A stretch of 7,865 nt of DNA, from the IMG/VR virus record IMGVR_UViG_2690316115_000018. One strand, 5' to 3'. Numbering within the stretch: position 1 is the first letter of the stretch; each line of letters opens with the position of its first letter. Under the pieces are notes generated by a model that saw nothing but the letters and a program-made list of their open reading frames with translations, had not been told where the DNA came from and searched no databases. The DNA comes from a virus (Duplodnaviria > Heunggongvirae > Uroviricota > Caudoviricetes). Made by a program: the position numbers and the translations under genes. This document shows, in pieces, positions 1,620 to 7,416 of the stretch.

Positions 1620-1708
1620 TGAGAAATCCTCTGCTTCCCCTTAACGCCGGGTAGCGGAACTGTTTGCTGAGAACACCGTGCGGTGTCTTGATGAGTAGAA
1701 TTTAGAAT

Positions 1709-1738
1709 AGCCTAAGAGTTATGGTCAAGCTTTTTGTG
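1709..1738 (-). promoter_or_regulatory. pL-like early-left promoter (-35 TTGACC, 18-nt spacer, -10 TAAAAT on minus strand)
   Basis: minus-strand hexamers read directly from sequence (rc of plus 1733-1738 and 1709-1714); located in the 207-bp gap between the repressor gene and the first early-left gene; overlapped by an operator-like inverted repeat. Confidence 0.4.
1711..1726. promoter_or_regulatory. operator-like inverted repeat TTTAG-N6-CTAAG (OL-type)
   Basis: same half-site architecture (TTAG-N6-CTAA) as the two inverted repeats in the dicA-dicC intergenic region; overlaps the putative pL -10 and spacer. Confidence 0.4.
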
Positions 1739-1826
1739 TAGAAAAACCTAAGCTTCTTGATGTAAAAAACACAAGTATTTGAAAGTTTGTGCTTTTTATT
1801 ACAGAGAGTTGCGAAAAAAAGGGGGG

Positions 1827-2234
1827 TTATTTATTTGCGCTTCTTTTGCGAGCTTTGAGTAGTTCTTCAAAAAGTTTGTTGAAATTCTCAACTCGAGCAC
1901 GCATCTCTGACAACAGAGCCTTTTGCTCTGACTCAGGCAGTGCGTCGAACAGTTGAAGCAACTCTTTTTGATCTTCTGTCAGATTGACTGGCTGATTATC
2001 TGGGATCGGTTCGCCTGGTTGCTTATCTTCATCTCCAAAAAGAAGCCAAGTCGGCGAGCACTGAAGCGCCTGGCTCAGTGCGAATAATCTCTTCCCCGCT
2101 GGCTGTGTTTCATCTCTTTCCCATTGAGAAATTGTTACGTGAGCCACTTTGACCAGCTTACCTAATGCGGCCTGAGACAGTTTTAATTTTTTTCGCCTGT
2201 ATAAGAGGCGAGCACCGAAGGTTTCGTTTTTCAT
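1827..2234 (-). CDS. dicA: DicA-like XRE-family HTH repressor (prophage immunity repressor, no S24 peptidase domain)
   Basis: 135 aa; N-terminal HTH (LKLSQAALGKLVKVAHVTISQWERDETQP); motifs FALSQALQCSPTWLLFGDEDKQP and NFNKLFEELLKARKR match my recollection of E. coli K-12 DicA; divergent from a Cro-like gene across an operator-rich spacer. Confidence 0.85.
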   Translation of the reverse strand: MKNETFGARLLYRRKKLKLSQAALGKLVKVAHVTISQWERDETQPAGKRLFALSQALQCSPTWLLFGDEDKQPGEPIPDNQPVNLTEDQKELLQLFDALPESEQKALLSEMRARVENFNKLFEELLKARKRSANK

Positions 2235-2250
2235 ATTAGGTAATTCTAAT
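2235..2250. promoter_or_regulatory. operator-like inverted repeat ATTAG-N6-CTAAT adjacent to dicA start
   Basis: perfect 5-bp arms with 6-bp spacer read directly from sequence; same half-site as 2285-2302 and 1711-1726. Confidence 0.5.
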
Positions 2251-2255
2251 TTTTC

Positions 2256-2284
2256 TTGACTTAGGTTTCTCTACGATCTAGTTT
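2256..2284 (+). promoter_or_regulatory. PR-like promoter for the cro-like gene (-35 TTGACT 2256-2261, 17-nt spacer, -10 TAGTTT 2279-2284)
   Basis: hexamers read from sequence; operator half-site CTTAGG (2260-2265) overlaps the -35 and the full operator 2285-2302 abuts the -10. Confidence 0.45.
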
Positions 2285-2302
2285 CCTTAGGAAAATCTAA
2301 GG
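2285..2302. promoter_or_regulatory. operator-like inverted repeat CCTTAG-N6-CTAAGG
   Basis: perfect 6-bp arms, 6-bp spacer; lies between the PR-like -10 and the cro-like RBS. Confidence 0.5.
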
Positions 2303-2310
2303 GGTTCGAT

Positions 2311-2538
2311 ATGTTGAAAATTGATGCTATAGCGTTTTTTGGCAGCAAAACAAAGCTTGCCAATGTCGCAGGAGTTAGGCTGGCAAGCGTTGCTGCATGG
2401 GGGGAACTGGTTCCTGAAGGTCGCGCGATGCGCCTGCAAGAGGCATCCGGCGGGGAACTTCAGTACGACCCCAAAGTTTATGACGAATATCGTAAGGCAA
2501 AGCGGGCGGGGCGGTTGAACAATGAAAATCACCACTGA
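2311..2538 (+). CDS. dicC: DicC / P22-Cro-like small DNA-binding regulator (YdaS family)
   Basis: 75 aa; RBS AAGGGG about 7 nt upstream; C-terminal LVPEGRAMRLQEASGGELQYDPKVY resembles P22 Cro (VIPEKDAYRLEIVTAGALKYQ) and my recollection of K-12 DicC; divergent from dicA-like repressor. Confidence 0.85.
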   Translation: MLKIDAIAFFGSKTKLANVAGVRLASVAAWGELVPEGRAMRLQEASGGELQYDPKVYDEYRKAKRAGRLNNENHH

Positions 2539-3073
2539 ACAGGTTTGTGAGGCTCTGGATACCTGGGTATGCCGACCAGGAATGACACAGGAGCAGGCGA
2601 CGATATTAATCACGGAAGCATTCTGGGCTCTGAAAGAACGCCCGAACATCGATGTTCAACGCGTCACGTTTAATGATGGCGAGGTTGATCAACGGGCGCT
2701 GGGCGTTAACCGGGTGAAGATATTCGAACGCTGGAAAGCTATCGACACCAGAGATAAGCGTGACAAATTCACGGCGCTGATTCCGGCAATTATGGAGGCT
2801 ATCCGGATCAGCGATTTCAGATTGTATTGTGAAATTACTGACGGAAAAAGCATTACGTACATGATCGCCGGGTTAAACAAAGAATATGGCGATGTGGTGG
2901 AGTCCGGGCTGCTTTTTGCGGATCCAGTTGTTGTGGAACGTGAGACTGACGAGCTTATAGAAAAAGCTATTGCTTTCAAGCACGCGTATCGTCAGCAATA
3001 CCAATATTACTTTGCAGATAAACAAATGTCTGCCAGGGGTTCGTATGAGTATCGATGCACTACGATGGGCTAA
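2522..3073 (+). CDS. YdaT/CII-like protein (183 aa) in the cII position
   Basis: ORF track; overlaps cro-like stop by 17 nt; position (cro, this gene, replication genes) and weak motif similarity (MKI..E.., IPAI) to my recollection of Rac YdaT; assignment tentative. Confidence 0.55.
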   Translation: MKITTEQVCEALDTWVCRPGMTQEQATILITEAFWALKERPNIDVQRVTFNDGEVDQRALGVNRVKIFERWKAIDTRDKRDKFTALIPAIMEAIRISDFRLYCEITDGKSITYMIAGLNKEYGDVVESGLLFADPVVVERETDELIEKAIAFKHAYRQQYQYYFADKQMSARGSYEYRCTTMG

Positions 3074-4085
3074 AAAGGTGAAAACCGGCAGTTCATCCAG
3101 TAAGTCAGTATTGACCTGGCTTGCTGATATGTGCGGTGCCGATTTGTGTGCATACCCGTCTGTATCTGCACTGGCAGAAGTAACGGAACTGAACAAAAAG
3201 ACTGTGCAGGACAGCTTACGACACCTGATGGAGATTGGGTTAATTGTTGATACCGGTGAGAGAAAAGGCAGAACAAAGCAAATTGTGGTGTACCGACTTA
3301 TCGGTGTAGAAGAAAGTGTTGCCGAGCCTGAATACACCCAAAAACGGGAGTCTTTAAAGGTGGGTAAAATTGGTGCTGTTAATAAAAACAGTACCGAAAA
3401 TGGTTATGTTTCAGCACAAAACAGACCCAAAAACAGAACTCTTAGCTGCATGGAAAATAACCAAAGACACCCAAATTTTCCATCAAAGACACCCAAAAAC
3501 GGATCACGGAACCCAAAGGAACCCAAAGATCTAAACCCCACACATAACGCACGCGAGAGTGCTCCGACCAGTGAGCAGGAAGTTTTGTCGTTACAGGCAG
3601 CCCCCCCTGTATTCCTGTATGGCCTGAGCGAACCCATCGGAAAATTCCCGATGAGCGATAGCTGGTATCCGTCACGGGATTTTCGACGACGGGCTGCGTT
3701 GTGGGGGATGGCTTTGCCGGAGACAGAATTTACACCTGCTGAACTTGCCGCCTTCCGGGACTACTGGGCAGCGGAGGGGAAAGTGTTTACGCAGATTCAG
3801 TGGGAGCAGAAATTCGCCCGTCACGTAAATCACGTCAGGGCGCAGGTTAAACCAGTCAGCAAAGGGGTAAACCATGCAGCAGCACCAGGTGGCACCGCAT
3901 CACGGGCAGTTCAGGAAATTCGGGCAGCACGTGAGCAGTGGGAACGTGAAAACGGATTTATCAGCGACGGAAACGGCCTGGAAGCTGTGGGAACTCATGG
4001 GGGTGGTTTATTCGAACCGCTGGATCCAGAAGAACGGGGCCGCACCTTCGAAGCTCTGGATTGCACAGATTGGCGCGATGACTGA
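3045..4085 (+). CDS. replication initiator: N-terminal HTH (O-like) fused to a DnaT-like C-terminal domain
   Basis: ATG 3045 with AGGGG 5 nt upstream (longer ORF-track start 2970 lacks RBS); N-terminus is replication-protein-type HTH; C-terminal segment IGKFPMSDSWYPSRDFRRRAALWGMALPETEFTPAELAAFRDYWAAEGKVFTQIQWEQKFAR aligns by eye with my recollection of E. coli DnaT ([61 protein letters not shown]); central low-complexity linker coincides with iteron-like repeats. Confidence 0.8.
   Translation: MSIDALRWAKKVKTGSSSSKSVLTWLADMCGADLCAYPSVSALAEVTELNKKTVQDSLRHLMEIGLIVDTGERKGRTKQIVVYRLIGVEESVAEPEYTQKRESLKVGKIGAVNKNSTENGYVSAQNRPKNRTLSCMENNQRHPNFPSKTPKNGSRNPKEPKDLNPTHNARESAPTSEQEVLSLQAAPPVFLYGLSEPIGKFPMSDSWYPSRDFRRRAALWGMALPETEFTPAELAAFRDYWAAEGKVFTQIQWEQKFARHVNHVRAQVKPVSKGVNHAAAPGGTASRAVQEIRAAREQWERENGFISDGNGLEAVGTHGGGLFEPLDPEERGRTFEALDCTDWRDD
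3424..3540. repeat. iteron-like direct repeats (ACCCAAA core) inside the initiator gene, candidate replication origin
   Basis: GACCCAAAAAC (3424-3434), AAAGACACCCAAA twice (3463-3475, 3485-3497), tandem GGAACCCAAAG (3508-3518, 3518-3528); encodes the linker between the two initiator domains, the position oriLambda occupies in lambda O. Confidence 0.5.
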
Positions 4086-4539
4086 GCAGCAAATCCGGCA
4101 GGTCTGCCGCCAGTGCATGGACCGCTGCCGGGCGGGTGAAACATGGCCTCCGGACCTGGCTGAGTTTGTGGCACTGATTTCGAAAAGCGGAGCCAATCCA
4201 TTCGGTCTGACGGTGGATGCTGTGATGGAGGAGTACCGCCGCTGGCGCAATGAGTCCTGGCGATACGACGGAAGTGATAAGTACCCGTGGTCTCAGCCTG
4301 TGCTGTATCACATTTGCCTCGAGATGCGTTCAAAGGGGATTGAGCGCCAGATGACCGAAGGGGAATTAAAACGGCTTGCAGAACGGCAACTGACGAAATG
4401 GGCAAAGCATGTTAGTAACGGCCTGAGCGTTCCGCCAGTCCGGCGACAACTGGCGGCCCCCAAACGCCCGTCGGGGCCAACGCCAATTGAGTTGCTGAAA
4501 CAGGAATATGAACGCCGGAAAGCGGCTGGTTTTGTTTGA
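3874..4539 (+). CDS. lambda-P-like replication protein (helicase loader); start uncertain
   Basis: motifs ETWPPDLAEFVALI and YPWSQPVLYHICLEMR parallel my recollection of lambda P (PSPGQFVAWCREEA, YPWKSNAHYWLVTNLYQNMR); ATG 3874 has AGGGG 6 nt upstream; alternative starts GTG 3946, ATG 3997, ATG 4078; every start overlaps the initiator gene in another frame. Confidence 0.7.
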   Translation: MQQHQVAPHHGQFRKFGQHVSSGNVKTDLSATETAWKLWELMGVVYSNRWIQKNGAAPSKLWIAQIGAMTEQQIRQVCRQCMDRCRAGETWPPDLAEFVALISKSGANPFGLTVDAVMEEYRRWRNESWRYDGSDKYPWSQPVLYHICLEMRSKGIERQMTEGELKRLAERQLTKWAKHVSNGLSVPPVRRQLAAPKRPSGPTPIELLKQEYERRKAAGFV

Positions 4540-4572
4540 GTTGAGAAGTGATTTTTTACCGGGAGGAAATTT

Positions 4573-5307
4573 ATGGAGACTGTTTTTGACGCACTGAAAG
4601 CGATGGGAAAAGCCACGTCGGTAGAGCTGGCTGCGCGACTTGATATCAGTCGTGAAGAAGTACTGAACGAGCTGTGGGAACTGAAAAAGGCTGGCTTCGT
4701 TGATAAAAGCGTATACACCTGGCGTGTGGCTGATAACAACGTTCAGCAGGAACAGCCAGCGCCAGAAGAAACCACCACGGCAACAGAAGCGAAAATCTCA
4801 GAGTGCGATTTAACCGCGACGATTGAACAACGCGGACCACAAACGGCGGATGAACTGGCTACGCTGTTCGGTACAACATCCCGCAAAGTTGCTTCAACGC
4901 TGGCAATGGCAATCAGCAAAGGTCGTCTGATTCGCGTAAACCAGAACGGTAAAATTCGTTACTGCATACCAGGTGATAATTTACCAGCAGAGCCGAAAGT
5001 TGAATCGGTAGCGGAAACCGATGGTAAAGCCTTTCCTCAGCCAGCCGGTGTTGCGTTACCGGTACAGAAAGATGCAACACAGGAAGATATTAAAACAGAA
5101 ACTGTGGCGGACATTGTGCAGTCGCTGCCATCGTTTACTGCAACGCGAGAAGATGATTTGATTTTGCCATCGCTGCATATGGCAAATCGCGAACTGCGTA
5201 GGGCGAAGAATCATGTCCAGAAGTGGGAGCGAGTCTGCGCCGCGCTGCGGGAGCTGAACAAGCACCGGGATATGGTTGCCGGGATTTGTCGGAAGTCCGG
5301 GCAATGA
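4573..5307 (+). CDS. hypothetical phage protein, winged-helix-like N-terminus (possibly DUF1627-type)
   Basis: 244 aa; GGGAGG RBS 6 nt upstream of ATG; N-terminal 60 aa and a second segment ([31 protein letters not shown]) look like wHTH units; family name is recollection only. Confidence 0.65.
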
Positions 5308-5468: not shown

Positions 5469-5915
5469 CGCGATAACGGTCAAAAATTATGGCGCTGACA
5501 CTTTTGTGCCACTGGAGATGACTGTACCTAAGTTCAGGGGAGAAGAACACGTCCGGTGGGATGGTCGGGCCAGATTTAAAGGGCAGGTCATGGCTCCAGC
5601 CTGTACGCTGGCAATGGAGGCTGCCTGGCGGGAAATTGATATGGGAACCACGCCACTCAGGGATTTACTGCCGGTCCAGAGAATAAATTCCTGTTACGGT
5701 TACACCACTGTGATCTTGCAAGTGCAGGAAAGTAGGTCTACACGGTAACGCGAGTGCGTGTAACTTTTGATGTCATTCCCGTAGAAACACCGGACAAATT
5801 TTCGCTGACAGGTCATGCAGAAGGTATAAATCTGCAGATTATGGACAATTACGGATATCCGGCAAGAGCCGGAAAAAGCATGCCGCCTCTAATTCTCAGT
5901 GGAAGATGGACTTGA
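5437..5915 (+). pseudogene. possible frameshifted gene remnant (open frames 5437-5748 and 5736-5915)
   Basis: GC-normal region whose open reading switches frame twice (frame of 5304, then frame of 5437, then frame of 5769); no good RBS for the 103-aa ORF (GTG start); no family recognised. Confidence 0.25.
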
Positions 5916-5974
5916 TTATACTCATTGCATTGTCAGAAATAGTTATCCATTAAAGGCTGGCTATTCCAAACAGG

Positions 5975-6002
5975 ATGTTGATTACAAAAATGTAATCAAC
6001 AT
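5975..6002. promoter_or_regulatory. 28-bp palindrome ATGTTGATTACA-aaaa-TGTAATCAACAT upstream of the binding-protein gene
   Basis: perfect 12-bp arms read directly; AT-rich region 165 bp upstream of the ATG; a TATAAT hexamer lies at 6029-6034. Confidence 0.4.
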
Positions 6003-6166
6003 GTAAGGTTTATACTCTTCAATATGCGTATAATTTTCCTTATTTTGTTGACTTTAAATAACAAGCTATGCACGAGGTAAAGTCGGATAAGTTTATCTGG
6101 ATGTAATATATATTATTTGTAGTGTTTATAACTTTATTTCATGATAACCAATAAAAGGAGTTTTTT

Positions 6167-6925
6167 ATGAGGAGCATAATGGCAGGTTTTTTAATATTCC
6201 TGTCTTCTGCTGCTTATGCTGATATCAATCTGTATGGTCCTGGTGGCCCGCATACAGCCTTGCTTGATGCAGCCAAACTTTATGCCGAAAAAACAGGTAT
6301 TATAGTGAACGTTCATTACGGCCCACAGAACAAATGGAATGAAGATGCCAAAAAAAATGCAGATATCTTGTTTGGCGCATCAGAACAATCTGCTCTGGCT
6401 ATCATTCGGGACCATAAAGACAGCTTCAGTGAAAAAGATATTCAGCCTCTTTATCTGCGAAAAAGTATTTTACTGGTAAAGAAAGGTAATCCTAAAAATA
6501 TCCGGAGTATTGACGACCTGACCAGACCTGGGATTGGCGTAATTGTTAATGATGGTGGTGGTACCAGTAATACATCAGGCACTGGCGTCTGGGAAGATAT
6601 TGCCGGACGTAAAGGGAATATAGAAACTGTCGCCGCAATCCGAAAAAATATTATTTTATATGCGCCCAATAGCGGAACTGCACGTAAGGCTCTTGAGAAT
6701 CAGCCTGGAGCAGATGTCTGGATAACCTGGGCTGACTGGGCAGCCAGTAATCCAGAAATTGGTGATGTCGTGGAAATAGCGCCAGACTACGTGATATGGC
6801 GTGATATGAACATTACAGTACGTCAGGATGCAAATGATGAAACCCGTCGATTTGCAGAATGGCTACAAACCGATGAAGCGGCGCCTGCATTCAAAAAATA
6901 TGGCTGGACCAGGAAAGGCACTTGA
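6167..6925 (+). CDS. secreted orphan periplasmic solute-binding protein, ModA-like (PBP type 2) fold; prophage moron
   Basis: 252 aa; AAGGAG 6 nt upstream of ATG; Sec signal peptide MRSIMAGFLIFLSSAAYA with AYA-D cleavage motif, no lipobox Cys; C-terminal FAEWLQTDEAAPAFKKYGWTRKG parallels my recollection of ModA (FYDYLKGPQAAEIFKRYGFTIK); low-GC gene with AT-rich upstream region; no permease or ATPase genes nearby. Confidence 0.75.
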   Translation: MRSIMAGFLIFLSSAAYADINLYGPGGPHTALLDAAKLYAEKTGIIVNVHYGPQNKWNEDAKKNADILFGASEQSALAIIRDHKDSFSEKDIQPLYLRKSILLVKKGNPKNIRSIDDLTRPGIGVIVNDGGGTSNTSGTGVWEDIAGRKGNIETVAAIRKNIILYAPNSGTARKALENQPGADVWITWADWAASNPEIGDVVEIAPDYVIWRDMNITVRQDANDETRRFAEWLQTDEAAPAFKKYGWTRKGT

Positions 6926-7110: not shown

Positions 7111-7260
7111 TGCGGGTGCTTGAGGCTATCTGCCTCGGGCATGAACACCAACGGCAGATAGATAAAAGCCCCACCCGACTATAAATCGAAGTGAGGCCCC
7201 TATATGCTCGTCACATATAGATTGCCTCTTACGGACCGAAAGGTCAAGGAGAAGCAGGCT
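7111..7260 (+). promoter_or_regulatory. hok mRNA 5' leader with tac-like hairpin and 5'/3' fold-back element
   Basis: hairpin GAGGC-tatct-GCCTC (7122-7136); alternative pairing CTATCTGCC (7125-7133) with GGCAGATAG (7155-7163); 5' end TGCGGGTGCTTGAG (7111-7124) is complementary to 3' CTCAACGCACCCGCA (7467-7481). Confidence 0.5.
7155..7215 (-). ncRNA. putative Sok-like antisense RNA (approximate bounds)
   Basis: by analogy to the sokC/mokC arrangement; minus-strand -35 TTGACC (rc of plus 7242-7247) overlaps the hok SD region, but the -10 at 17-nt spacing (CAATCT) is weak, and no clear terminator was found; existence not demonstrated. Confidence 0.3.
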
Positions 7261-7416
7261 ATGAAGCAGCAAAAGGCGATGTTAATCGCCCTGATCGTCA
7301 TCTGTTTAACCGTCATAGTGACGGCACTGGTAACGAGGAAAGACCTCTGCGAGGTACGAATCCGAACCGGCCAGACGGAGGTCGCTGTCTTCACAGCTTA
7401 CGAACCTGAGGAGTAA
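7204..7416 (+). CDS. Mok-like reading frame (in-frame N-terminal extension of Hok, 70 aa)
   Basis: ATG 7204 in frame with hok; extension MLVTYRLPLTDRKVKEKQA resembles my recollection of K-12 MokC (MLNTCRVPLTDRKVKEKRA). Confidence 0.5.
   Translation: MLVTYRLPLTDRKVKEKQAMKQQKAMLIALIVICLTVIVTALVTRKDLCEVRIRTGQTEVAVFTAYEPEE
7261..7416 (+). CDS. hokD: Hok-family type I toxin, HokD(RelF)-like, 51 aa membrane peptide
   Basis: MKQQKAMLIALIVICLTVIVTALVTRKDLCEVRIRTGQTEVAVFTAYEPEE matches my recollection of E. coli HokD and is close to HokC/Gef; AAGGAG 9 nt upstream; single transmembrane helix. Confidence 0.9.
   Translation: MKQQKAMLIALIVICLTVIVTALVTRKDLCEVRIRTGQTEVAVFTAYEPEE

Follow-up and report, generated by a model that had tools for sequence, protein, structure and literature searches.

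The window analysed here is a stretch of 7,865 nucleotides (nt) from the IMG/VR virus record IMGVR_UViG_2690316115_000018 (Caudoviricetes). It is the early-right region of a Rac-like lambdoid prophage and is 99.8% identical to the "PPompW" prophages, some of which, among the best phage-database matches, carry an inserted Stx2a phage. One of its genes encodes a replication initiator of 346 amino acids (aa), whose current annotation is merely "DnaT-like ssDNA-binding domain-containing protein" (ssDNA, single-stranded DNA). Inside this gene, at about 3331-3532, lies a cluster of short direct repeats which is a candidate replication origin of the prophage. The features of the window are collected in Table 1.

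The initiator and the repeats in its linker

AlphaFold2 was used to model aa 1-100 of the initiator, with an alignment built on 100 relatives (predicted local distance difference test score 92.3, predicted template modelling score 0.82). The modelled N-terminal domain has the topology H-H-H-H-E-E and is a winged helix which ends near aa 86. Its neighbours in the PDB according to Foldseek are generic winged-helix DNA binders, staphylococcal plasmid initiators among them. A more specific structural relative was sought there and rejected, as the plasmid RepA_N proteins scored no better than MarR/PerR. The Pfam family HTH_36 (PF13730) matches aa 36-67 with 23.5 bits for the 100-aa query and 20.9 bits for the full-length protein (cut-off 25), and it is found at the N-terminus of 100 of 100 relatives at E<=0.1, the best at 5.9e-17. 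The DnaT family (PF17948) matches the C-terminal half with 61 bits against a cut-off of 25. Homology of the N-terminal domain to lambda O was considered and rejected, since BLASTP against lambda O gave no match and Phage_rep_O (PF04492) stayed below threshold in the window's initiator (E=0.049, 14.6 bits against a cut-off of 28.7). Even that weak level was reached in only 3 of 100 relatives. The initiator's N-terminal domain and lambda O are of a common fold class and belong to separate sequence families. Pfam gave no Rep_3/TrfA-family match in the window's initiator.

The heptamer ACCCAAA occurs exactly six times in the window, always on the plus strand (at 3336, 3425, 3469, 3491, 3511 and 3521), where about 1.15 copies would be expected. 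A preliminary description of this DNA had claimed five or more such direct repeats, and the claim held against three null models. Six copies appeared in none of 200 dinucleotide shuffles of the whole window, in none of 5000 local dinucleotide shuffles of the A-rich interval 3300-3560 (mean 0.26), and in none of 5000 synonymous recodings of the initiator (mean 0.72). The repeats had been placed at 3424-3540, which takes in five of the six heptamers; the copy at 3336 lies upstream of that span. They encode aa 98-162 of the protein, and the open reading frame (ORF), the winged-helix model and the Pfam DnaT match agree with the earlier placement in a linker between a helix-turn-helix domain and a DnaT-like domain.

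The preliminary description treated the repeats as a single class, and two classes are present instead. Type-1 units have a core of 11 base pairs (bp), CC-RAAAAY-GG, and the residues encoded by the five copies at 3337-3502 (aa 98-153) fall after the winged helix (1-86) and before the DnaT domain (201-267). The degenerate second copy was missing from the earlier list. Type-2 units follow directly after. What had been called two 13-bp copies is indeed an identical pair, and is actually the 14-mer CAAAGACACCCAAA at 3462-3475 and 3484-3497; what had been called a tandem 11-bp pair is GGAACCCAAA repeated with a period of 10 bp (GGAACC at 3508-3513 and 3518-3523).

Natural variation of the array was followed in 35 variants from 80 E. 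coli viral contigs. The perfect core is the usual state of copies 2 and 3 in these, and the other cores are almost invariant. Most E. coli alleles end copy 3 in ...ACGG, so the G-to-A change in the window is derived. Variants with an AAATT centre, as in copy 4, are also found in relatives and in lambda iteron 3. Two E. coli initiator alleles, P0035 and P0037 (324 aa), lack exactly 22 aa or 66 bp (3425-3491), which is precisely the interval between type-1 copies 3 and 5, so the number of iterons varies through recombination between repeats. Vibrio H20-like phages differ by 24 nt of matched sequence, which is one repeat period. The array also holds two inverted repeats: ATGGAAAAT/ATTTTCCAT at 3450-3483, a 9-bp stem around the degenerate AACCAAAGACACCCAA (DNA fold z=-3.4), and GGTGCTGTT/AACAGTACC at about 3370-3395.

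Table 1. Features of the repeat array, the initiator gene and their surroundings, in positions of the window.
Feature	Positions	Strand	Basis or remark
Type-1 copy 1, core CCCAAAAACGG, unit about 3331-3354, read T-Q-K-R	3337-3347	+	invariant in 35 E. coli variants
Type-1 copy 2, degenerate core ACCGAAAATGG	3393-3403	+	perfect ACCGAAAACGG in many E. coli alleles
Type-1 copy 3, core CCCAAAAACAG, read P-K-N	3426-3436	+	mostly ...ACGG in E. coli alleles
Type-1 copy 4, variant core CCCAAATTTTC, AAATTT centre	3470-3480	+	
Type-1 copy 5, core CCCAAAAACGG, read T-P-K-N-G	3492-3502	+	
Type-2 repeats, GGAACC(CAAA) twice with 10-bp period, then GATCT	3508-3532	+	candidate unwinding or second-site element
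60-mer with the lowest duplex stability in the gene, located between copies 1 and 3 and including copy 2	3351-3410		nearest-neighbour profile
Mosaic junction	3525-3529		downstream 92% identical to Rac-SA53 ydaU, upstream unrelated
Initiator gene, 346 aa	3045-4085	+	ORF; "phage replication protein" in LC567818
Winged-helix coding part, aa 1-86, presumed iteron reader	3045-3302	+	AlphaFold2, Foldseek, HTH_36
DnaT-like domain coding part, aa 201-267	3645-3845	+	PF17948, E=9e-17
Lambda-P-like gene, presumed helicase loader and initiator partner	4117-4539	+	annotated coding sequence mapped from LC567818
ydaT-like gene	2522-3073	+	YdaT_toxin, E=3e-5
cro/dicC-like gene	2311-2538		gene order
dicA-like repressor	1827-2234	-	gene order
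paa/adfO adhesin gene	6167-6925	+	SBP_bac_11 fold, E=5.6e-34
sok	7114-7263	+	Rfam, 103.9 bits
ORF, 70 aa	7204-7416	+	"gef / phage maintenance protein" in LC567818

Constraint on the DNA and coupling to the winged helix

The N-terminal 165 aa of the initiator were used as a tblastn query, and homologues were found at 31-58% identity in Edwardsiella phage EPP-1, E. coli phage phiV10, Vibrio H20-like phages, Acinetobacter phages and others. In four of the four homologues examined (EPP-1, phiV10, Vibrio H20 and Acinetobacter LZ35), an array with the same core lies just 3' of the winged-helix coding part. Sixty loci from different bacterial species were fetched, and the comparison set consists of 64 distinct loci of about 5 kilobases (kb) each, with hosts in Enterobacterales, Vibrio, Acinetobacter, Marinomonas and Desulfovibrionaceae and N-terminal domains as little as 35-55% identical. 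The alignment with relatives that had been suggested as a check found an array in the same place in nearly all of them. The generic core has 201 matches in the 331-nt linker interval of these loci, and outside it, in about 296 kb, only 2 on the same strand and 7 on the reverse strand. This is a density of 9.5 per kb in the linker against 0.015 outside, an enrichment of more than 600-fold. The most repeated 12-mer of each locus has 3-11 copies in the linker in 61 of the 63 loci analysed, and no other cluster of the core motif was found within the window or the roughly 5-kb loci. The family is very large, with 2274 clusters at 50% identity (E<=1e-3) in which the domain is almost always N-terminal; full-length and representative queries were used for this search, as a protein query with the N-terminal domain only gave fragments.

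Type-2 units of the form [AG]GAA[CT]C, chained at 9-15 bp after the last type-1 copy, were found in 42 of 62 loci and in 2 of 1334 background windows, and 24 of the 62 loci have at least three of them. They are read in differing frames across loci. The type-2 repeats are followed by TAAAAATAAAAAA in Acinetobacter and by AAAGATCT, with its Dam site, in Enterobacterales and Vibrio. In the window this GATC is at 3528-3531, and it is found at the equivalent place in loci L003, L005, L007-L010, L015 and L016. The same site marks a mosaic junction with the Rac-SA53 prophage, and it may have a link to methylation or SeqA.

Aligned relatives' proteins display P-K-N-G-like repeats in the linker, and the codons behind them were compared with background usage. 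The core is read in all three frames (139, 35 and 27 copies), giving PKNG/PENG/TENG, TQKRE-type and VPKTE-type peptides. In the window itself, copies 1 and 5 are the identical 14-mer ACACCCAAAAACGG, which is read TQKR in the frame at 3334 and TPKNG in the frame at 3489. Within [PTS][KE]NG peptides the synonymous positions are frozen: Pro is CCC in 79 of 79 cases against a background of 14% (p=2e-54), Lys is AAA in 72 of 72 (66%), Glu is GAA in 32 of 32 (59%), Asn is AAC in 100 of 104 (54%) and Thr is ACC in 22 of 23 (30%). Repeat spacings peak at 17, 18, 24 and 33 bp, and 45% of them are not multiples of 3. Among 119 full-length cluster representatives, 96 have at least two peptides derived from the motif within aa 81-200; two or more frames are used for them in 84 representatives and all three in 33. 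The use of three frames together with the frozen synonymous positions shows that the constraint acts on the DNA and not on the peptide. This also explains the odd composition of the initiator's linker, where the protein sequence follows from DNA sites that are read in three frames.

Beyond its core, the type-1 unit reaches about 24 bp, AA....CC-RAAAAY-GG....TT. Across the family, dyad symmetry is above chance at pairs 0/13, -1/14, -3/16, -4/17 and -5/18, and pair -1/14 has changed on both sides (GC in 80 units, CG in 30, z=8). At pair 1/12 the two bases are complementary in 39% of units, where chance gives 37%, and at pair -2/15 in 26%, where it gives 33%. A continuous stem is therefore out of reach for most units, and this discontinuous symmetry suggests that they are read as two protein half-sites rather than as the stem of a hairpin. 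In the window, clear CCC...GGG arms are present in copy 1 only.

What stays constant beside the array is the winged helix. The C-terminal parts vary among 100 HTH_36 relatives (DnaT in 14, Phg_2220_C in 7), and so does the partner gene: the window and phiV10 have a lambda-P-like one, and LZ35 has one for a DnaB-like helicase. E. coli proteins whose N-termini are of other kinds, including DUF1376, T5orf172 and "replisome organizer" types, share the C-terminal half of the window's protein at 84-92% identity. The ydaU gene of Rac-SA53 (locus L002, 2497-3567) has a match to the window that starts only at about 3525, immediately behind the type-2 repeats; it encodes a different N-terminal domain, and it contains no CC-RAAAAY-GG array and no obvious linker repeats. 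The distribution of domains and arrays, together with this junction, indicates that both repeat classes are exchanged together with the winged helix, as a single module. Lambdoid O genes are known from classical work to behave in the same way.

The repeats also vary together with the initiator. A subfamily in Acinetobacter, which has a 7-aa insertion and is 76% identical internally, uses the core GTCCCAACAAYGGAAC with the pattern CCCAACAAYGG (also given as CCCAACAATGG, the counterpart of CCCAAAAACGG). Other Acinetobacter members keep CCCAAAAACGG, so the core variant follows the initiator and not the host. The repeats diverge most, as CCCCCGAAC and CCCCCGCCGGAAACGG, in two loci from Desulfovibrionaceae which are without the wing motif DTGERKG.T that is otherwise nearly invariant. 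This co-variation of wing motif and repeat is suggestive and is confounded by shared ancestry. A one-to-one code between recognition helix and core was looked for and rejected, as the correlations are at the level of the subfamily and the wing motif and share the same confounder.

A candidate origin and its alternatives

We read the repeats at about 3331-3532 as the replication origin of the Rac-like (PPompW) prophage, embedded in the linker-coding part of the prophage's own initiator, and give this reading a probability of about 0.75. The repeats are very probably binding sites (iterons) of the initiator, as in lambda but for a different, very large and uncharacterised initiator family. Every computational test able to contradict the earlier iteron and origin reading came out in its favour, and a lack of the repeats in close relatives, which the preliminary description had named as a refutation, was not what the comparison gave.

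The origin would work as follows. The rightward early operon (cro-like, ydaT-like, initiator and P-like genes) would be transcribed through the repeat site. The initiator's winged helix would bind the five type-1 quasi-palindromes, each of about 24 bp with C/G tracts around an A-tract, probably as dimers. The nucleoprotein complex might then destabilise nearby DNA, either the type-2 GGAACC repeats or the A+T-richer interval between copies 1 and 3, and the DnaT-like C-terminal half could recruit the lambda-P-like loader with host DnaB.

The closest known analogue is the origin inside gene O of lambda and the Stx (Shiga toxin) phages, and the likeness drawn in the preliminary description is borne out by gene position and unit design when the annotated lambda iterons are compared. 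In both systems the repeats lie mid-gene, between a DNA-binding N-terminal domain and a loader-interacting C-terminal domain: the lambda iterons ATCCCTCAAAACGAGGGA occupy +348..+432 of O, and those of the present family +260..+535 of the initiator. Both units are built from a C-tract, an A-tract and a G-tract (TCCCTC-AAAAC-GAGGGA in lambda, (A)CACCC-AAAAAC-GGG(TGT) in the window's family). A P-like gene lies directly downstream, the N-terminal domain and repeats swap as a unit against a conserved C-terminal half, and iteron number differs among natural alleles, with 4 in lambda and 6 in Stx phages (PMC7466680). Lambda O touches distal G residues on both sides of the iteron, whose centre bends (PMC7466680). 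The present system differs in that its N-terminal domain is outside the lambda O family and a DnaT-like half makes up its C-terminus. The core is shorter than in lambda and only partly symmetric, and where lambda has its long A+T-rich tract there is a second class of repeats, of 10-13 bp. The core has also changed little among initiators and hosts that are themselves very divergent. The computational evidence, from several independent lines, supports a feature which would work like ori-lambda, with an initiator from outside the lambda O sequence family.

Iteron plasmid origins and oriC have same-orientation arrays, with short repeated 8-13-mers in the unwinding element beside them (PMC4081077). 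RK2 oriV/TrfA, F oriS/RepE, R6K/pi and oriC share with the window the repeats spaced at 17-33 bp, the winged-helix initiator and the layout of type-1 followed by type-2 units. Unlike the iteron plasmids, the window has no two-winged-helix Rep_3 initiator and no enrichment of DnaA boxes, and its candidate origin is inside a coding sequence. The staphylococcal RepA_N initiators (PDB 4pql, 4pt7, 4pta and 5kbj) also have winged-helix N-terminal domains, but the match is weak (E about 1e-2, template modelling score about 0.5) and concerns the fold only. Rac has the same gene order, from dicA/racR-like and dicC/ydaS-like genes through a ydaT-like gene to initiator and loader, and Rac-SA53 shares the C-terminal half of the initiator and the P-like gene at 92% identity. 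An active origin of Rac, oriJ, has been reported (PMC3945230). As the YdaU of Rac-SA53 has another N-terminal domain and no array, its origin specificity must differ from that of the window.

A strong unwinding element was looked for with a nearest-neighbour profile and rejected, as the profile gives only a modest minimum at 3351-3410, which is a weak candidate for a strand-opening site. The type-2 repeats may form part of an unwinding element; the units of the window are not A+T-rich, and the DNA 3' of the array is G+C-rich. Sites resembling DnaA boxes are not enriched in the window (12 against 6.6 expected), and one with a single mismatch, TTATTAACA, lies in the span of the array at 3377-3385 on the minus strand.

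Several observations weigh against the repeats being an origin bound by the initiator. No experimental binding or origin activity was found in the searchable literature for any member of the family. The copies all point the same way along the gene, and a role at the level of RNA is compatible with this strand bias. Two of the five type-1 copies in the window are off-core (3426-3436 ends in ...CAG, and 3470-3480 has the AAATTT centre). The interval 3351-3410 is merely in the top 9% or so of the window for instability, and no strong A+T-rich tract lies beside the array. Counts across loci are phylogenetically non-independent. Finally, the single strand of the linker folds better than its shuffles (z=-3.0 in the window, a family mean of -3.1, and z<-2 in 45 of 62 loci), which is expected from quasi-palindromes.

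The last of these is the starting point for an alternative in which the repeats act as hairpins in single-stranded nucleic acid, either in messenger RNA, with RAAAAY as the loop and an effect on translation or stability, or in ssDNA, as a signal for primosome assembly or priming. The two-sided co-variation of the arms, the placement of every unit on the coding strand and the DnaT-like C-terminal domain of the initiator would all suit such a role. The symmetry is discontinuous, however, with pairs 1/12 and -2/15 at about or below chance, and the domain encoded next to the array is predicted to bind duplex DNA; lambda iterons of the same design are bound as duplex DNA (PMC7466680), and the DnaT domain is found in only 14 of 100 members when the array is found in nearly all. 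We consider hairpins improbable, a little more so than a role in control. In a control role the winged helix would bind the repeats for autoregulation, titration or copy control of the replication operon, and the true origin would be elsewhere in the prophage. The same DNA-level constraint and coupling to the N-terminal domain would apply, the want of a strong A+T-rich unwinding tract beside the array would be accounted for, and plasmid iterons are known to serve control as well (PMC4081077). Yet this very arrangement serves as the origin in lambda, the closest analogue (PMC7466680), the conserved second class of repeats directly after the array fits an origin better than an operator, and a second cluster of the motif is absent from the window and the roughly 5-kb loci. 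Such a role is unlikely.

A by-product of a P-K-N-G-like linker selected as protein, or a recent tandem duplication with no role at the level of DNA, has the least chance of explaining the repeats. The spacings in phiV10 and Vibrio H20 are multiples of 3 and give tidy peptide repeats (NxPKNG), as this explanation would have it. But the other two frames account for 31% of the motif copies, which encode unrelated peptides, as the TQKR and TPKNG readings of one 14-mer illustrate; spacings are often out of frame, a K/E charge reversal is tolerated which is an A/G transition in the DNA, and recoding gives 0.72 heptamers against the 6 observed. Frame usage, codon fixation and the recoding null rule out a repetitive or low-complexity peptide as the cause, and this explanation is effectively refuted.

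Within the origin reading, a broader proposal is possible and should be taken as tentative, with the odds somewhat against it. The winged helix and a two-part cassette, in which quasi-palindromes are followed by two or three GAAYC units of 10-13 bp, may be a portable origin module of the whole initiator family, with a core that hardly differs between Desulfovibrionaceae and Acinetobacter. The type-2 units might be a sequence-specific unwinding element which the initiator reads as ssDNA, in the way that TrfA and DnaA read 13-mers or trios.

Prophage context and significance

The ydaT-like gene overlaps the start of the initiator gene by 29 nt, which suggests translational coupling in the early operon. 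The lambda-P-like gene is contained in an ORF at 3874-4539 that matches PF06992 (E=1.3e-16), and downstream of it are a DUF1627 gene, the paa/adfO adhesin gene and a hok/sok-type toxin-antitoxin module, in which the sok match overlaps the 70-aa ORF. The upstream flank of paa/adfO, at 5915-6146, is the most A+T-rich and least stable DNA of the entire window, and paa/adfO looks like a moron-type insertion in the prophage. The sok match was the only one that Rfam gave in the window, with none in the repeat region, and scans of 1700-4700 for promoters and terminators gave nothing exceeding shuffles.

Of 5426 complete E. coli genomes, 908 have the N-terminal domain and its repeats, O157, O145, O111 and O103 strains among them. 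The module is present at up to 4 places per genome (2 in O157:H7 PV15-279), and 3 places are on plasmids.

An origin at this place would be expected by specialists; what is added is the family-wide conservation of the repeats, with codons frozen in three frames, and the two-part cassette. No description of the repeats was found in the searchable literature, though they may be mentioned in older papers behind subscription, on epsilon15/phiV10 or on phage replication modules. The proposed location of the origin and its movement with the N-terminal domain give a testable handle on the induction-driven replication of these prophages. Several co-resident prophages with the same module may share one origin specificity, and an origin linked to the N-terminal domain predicts which of them do. 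If the module is indeed portable, such prophages could fire, titrate or exclude one another. The conserved 11-bp core may also serve as a simple rule for annotating origins in several thousand clusters of phage and prophage initiators.

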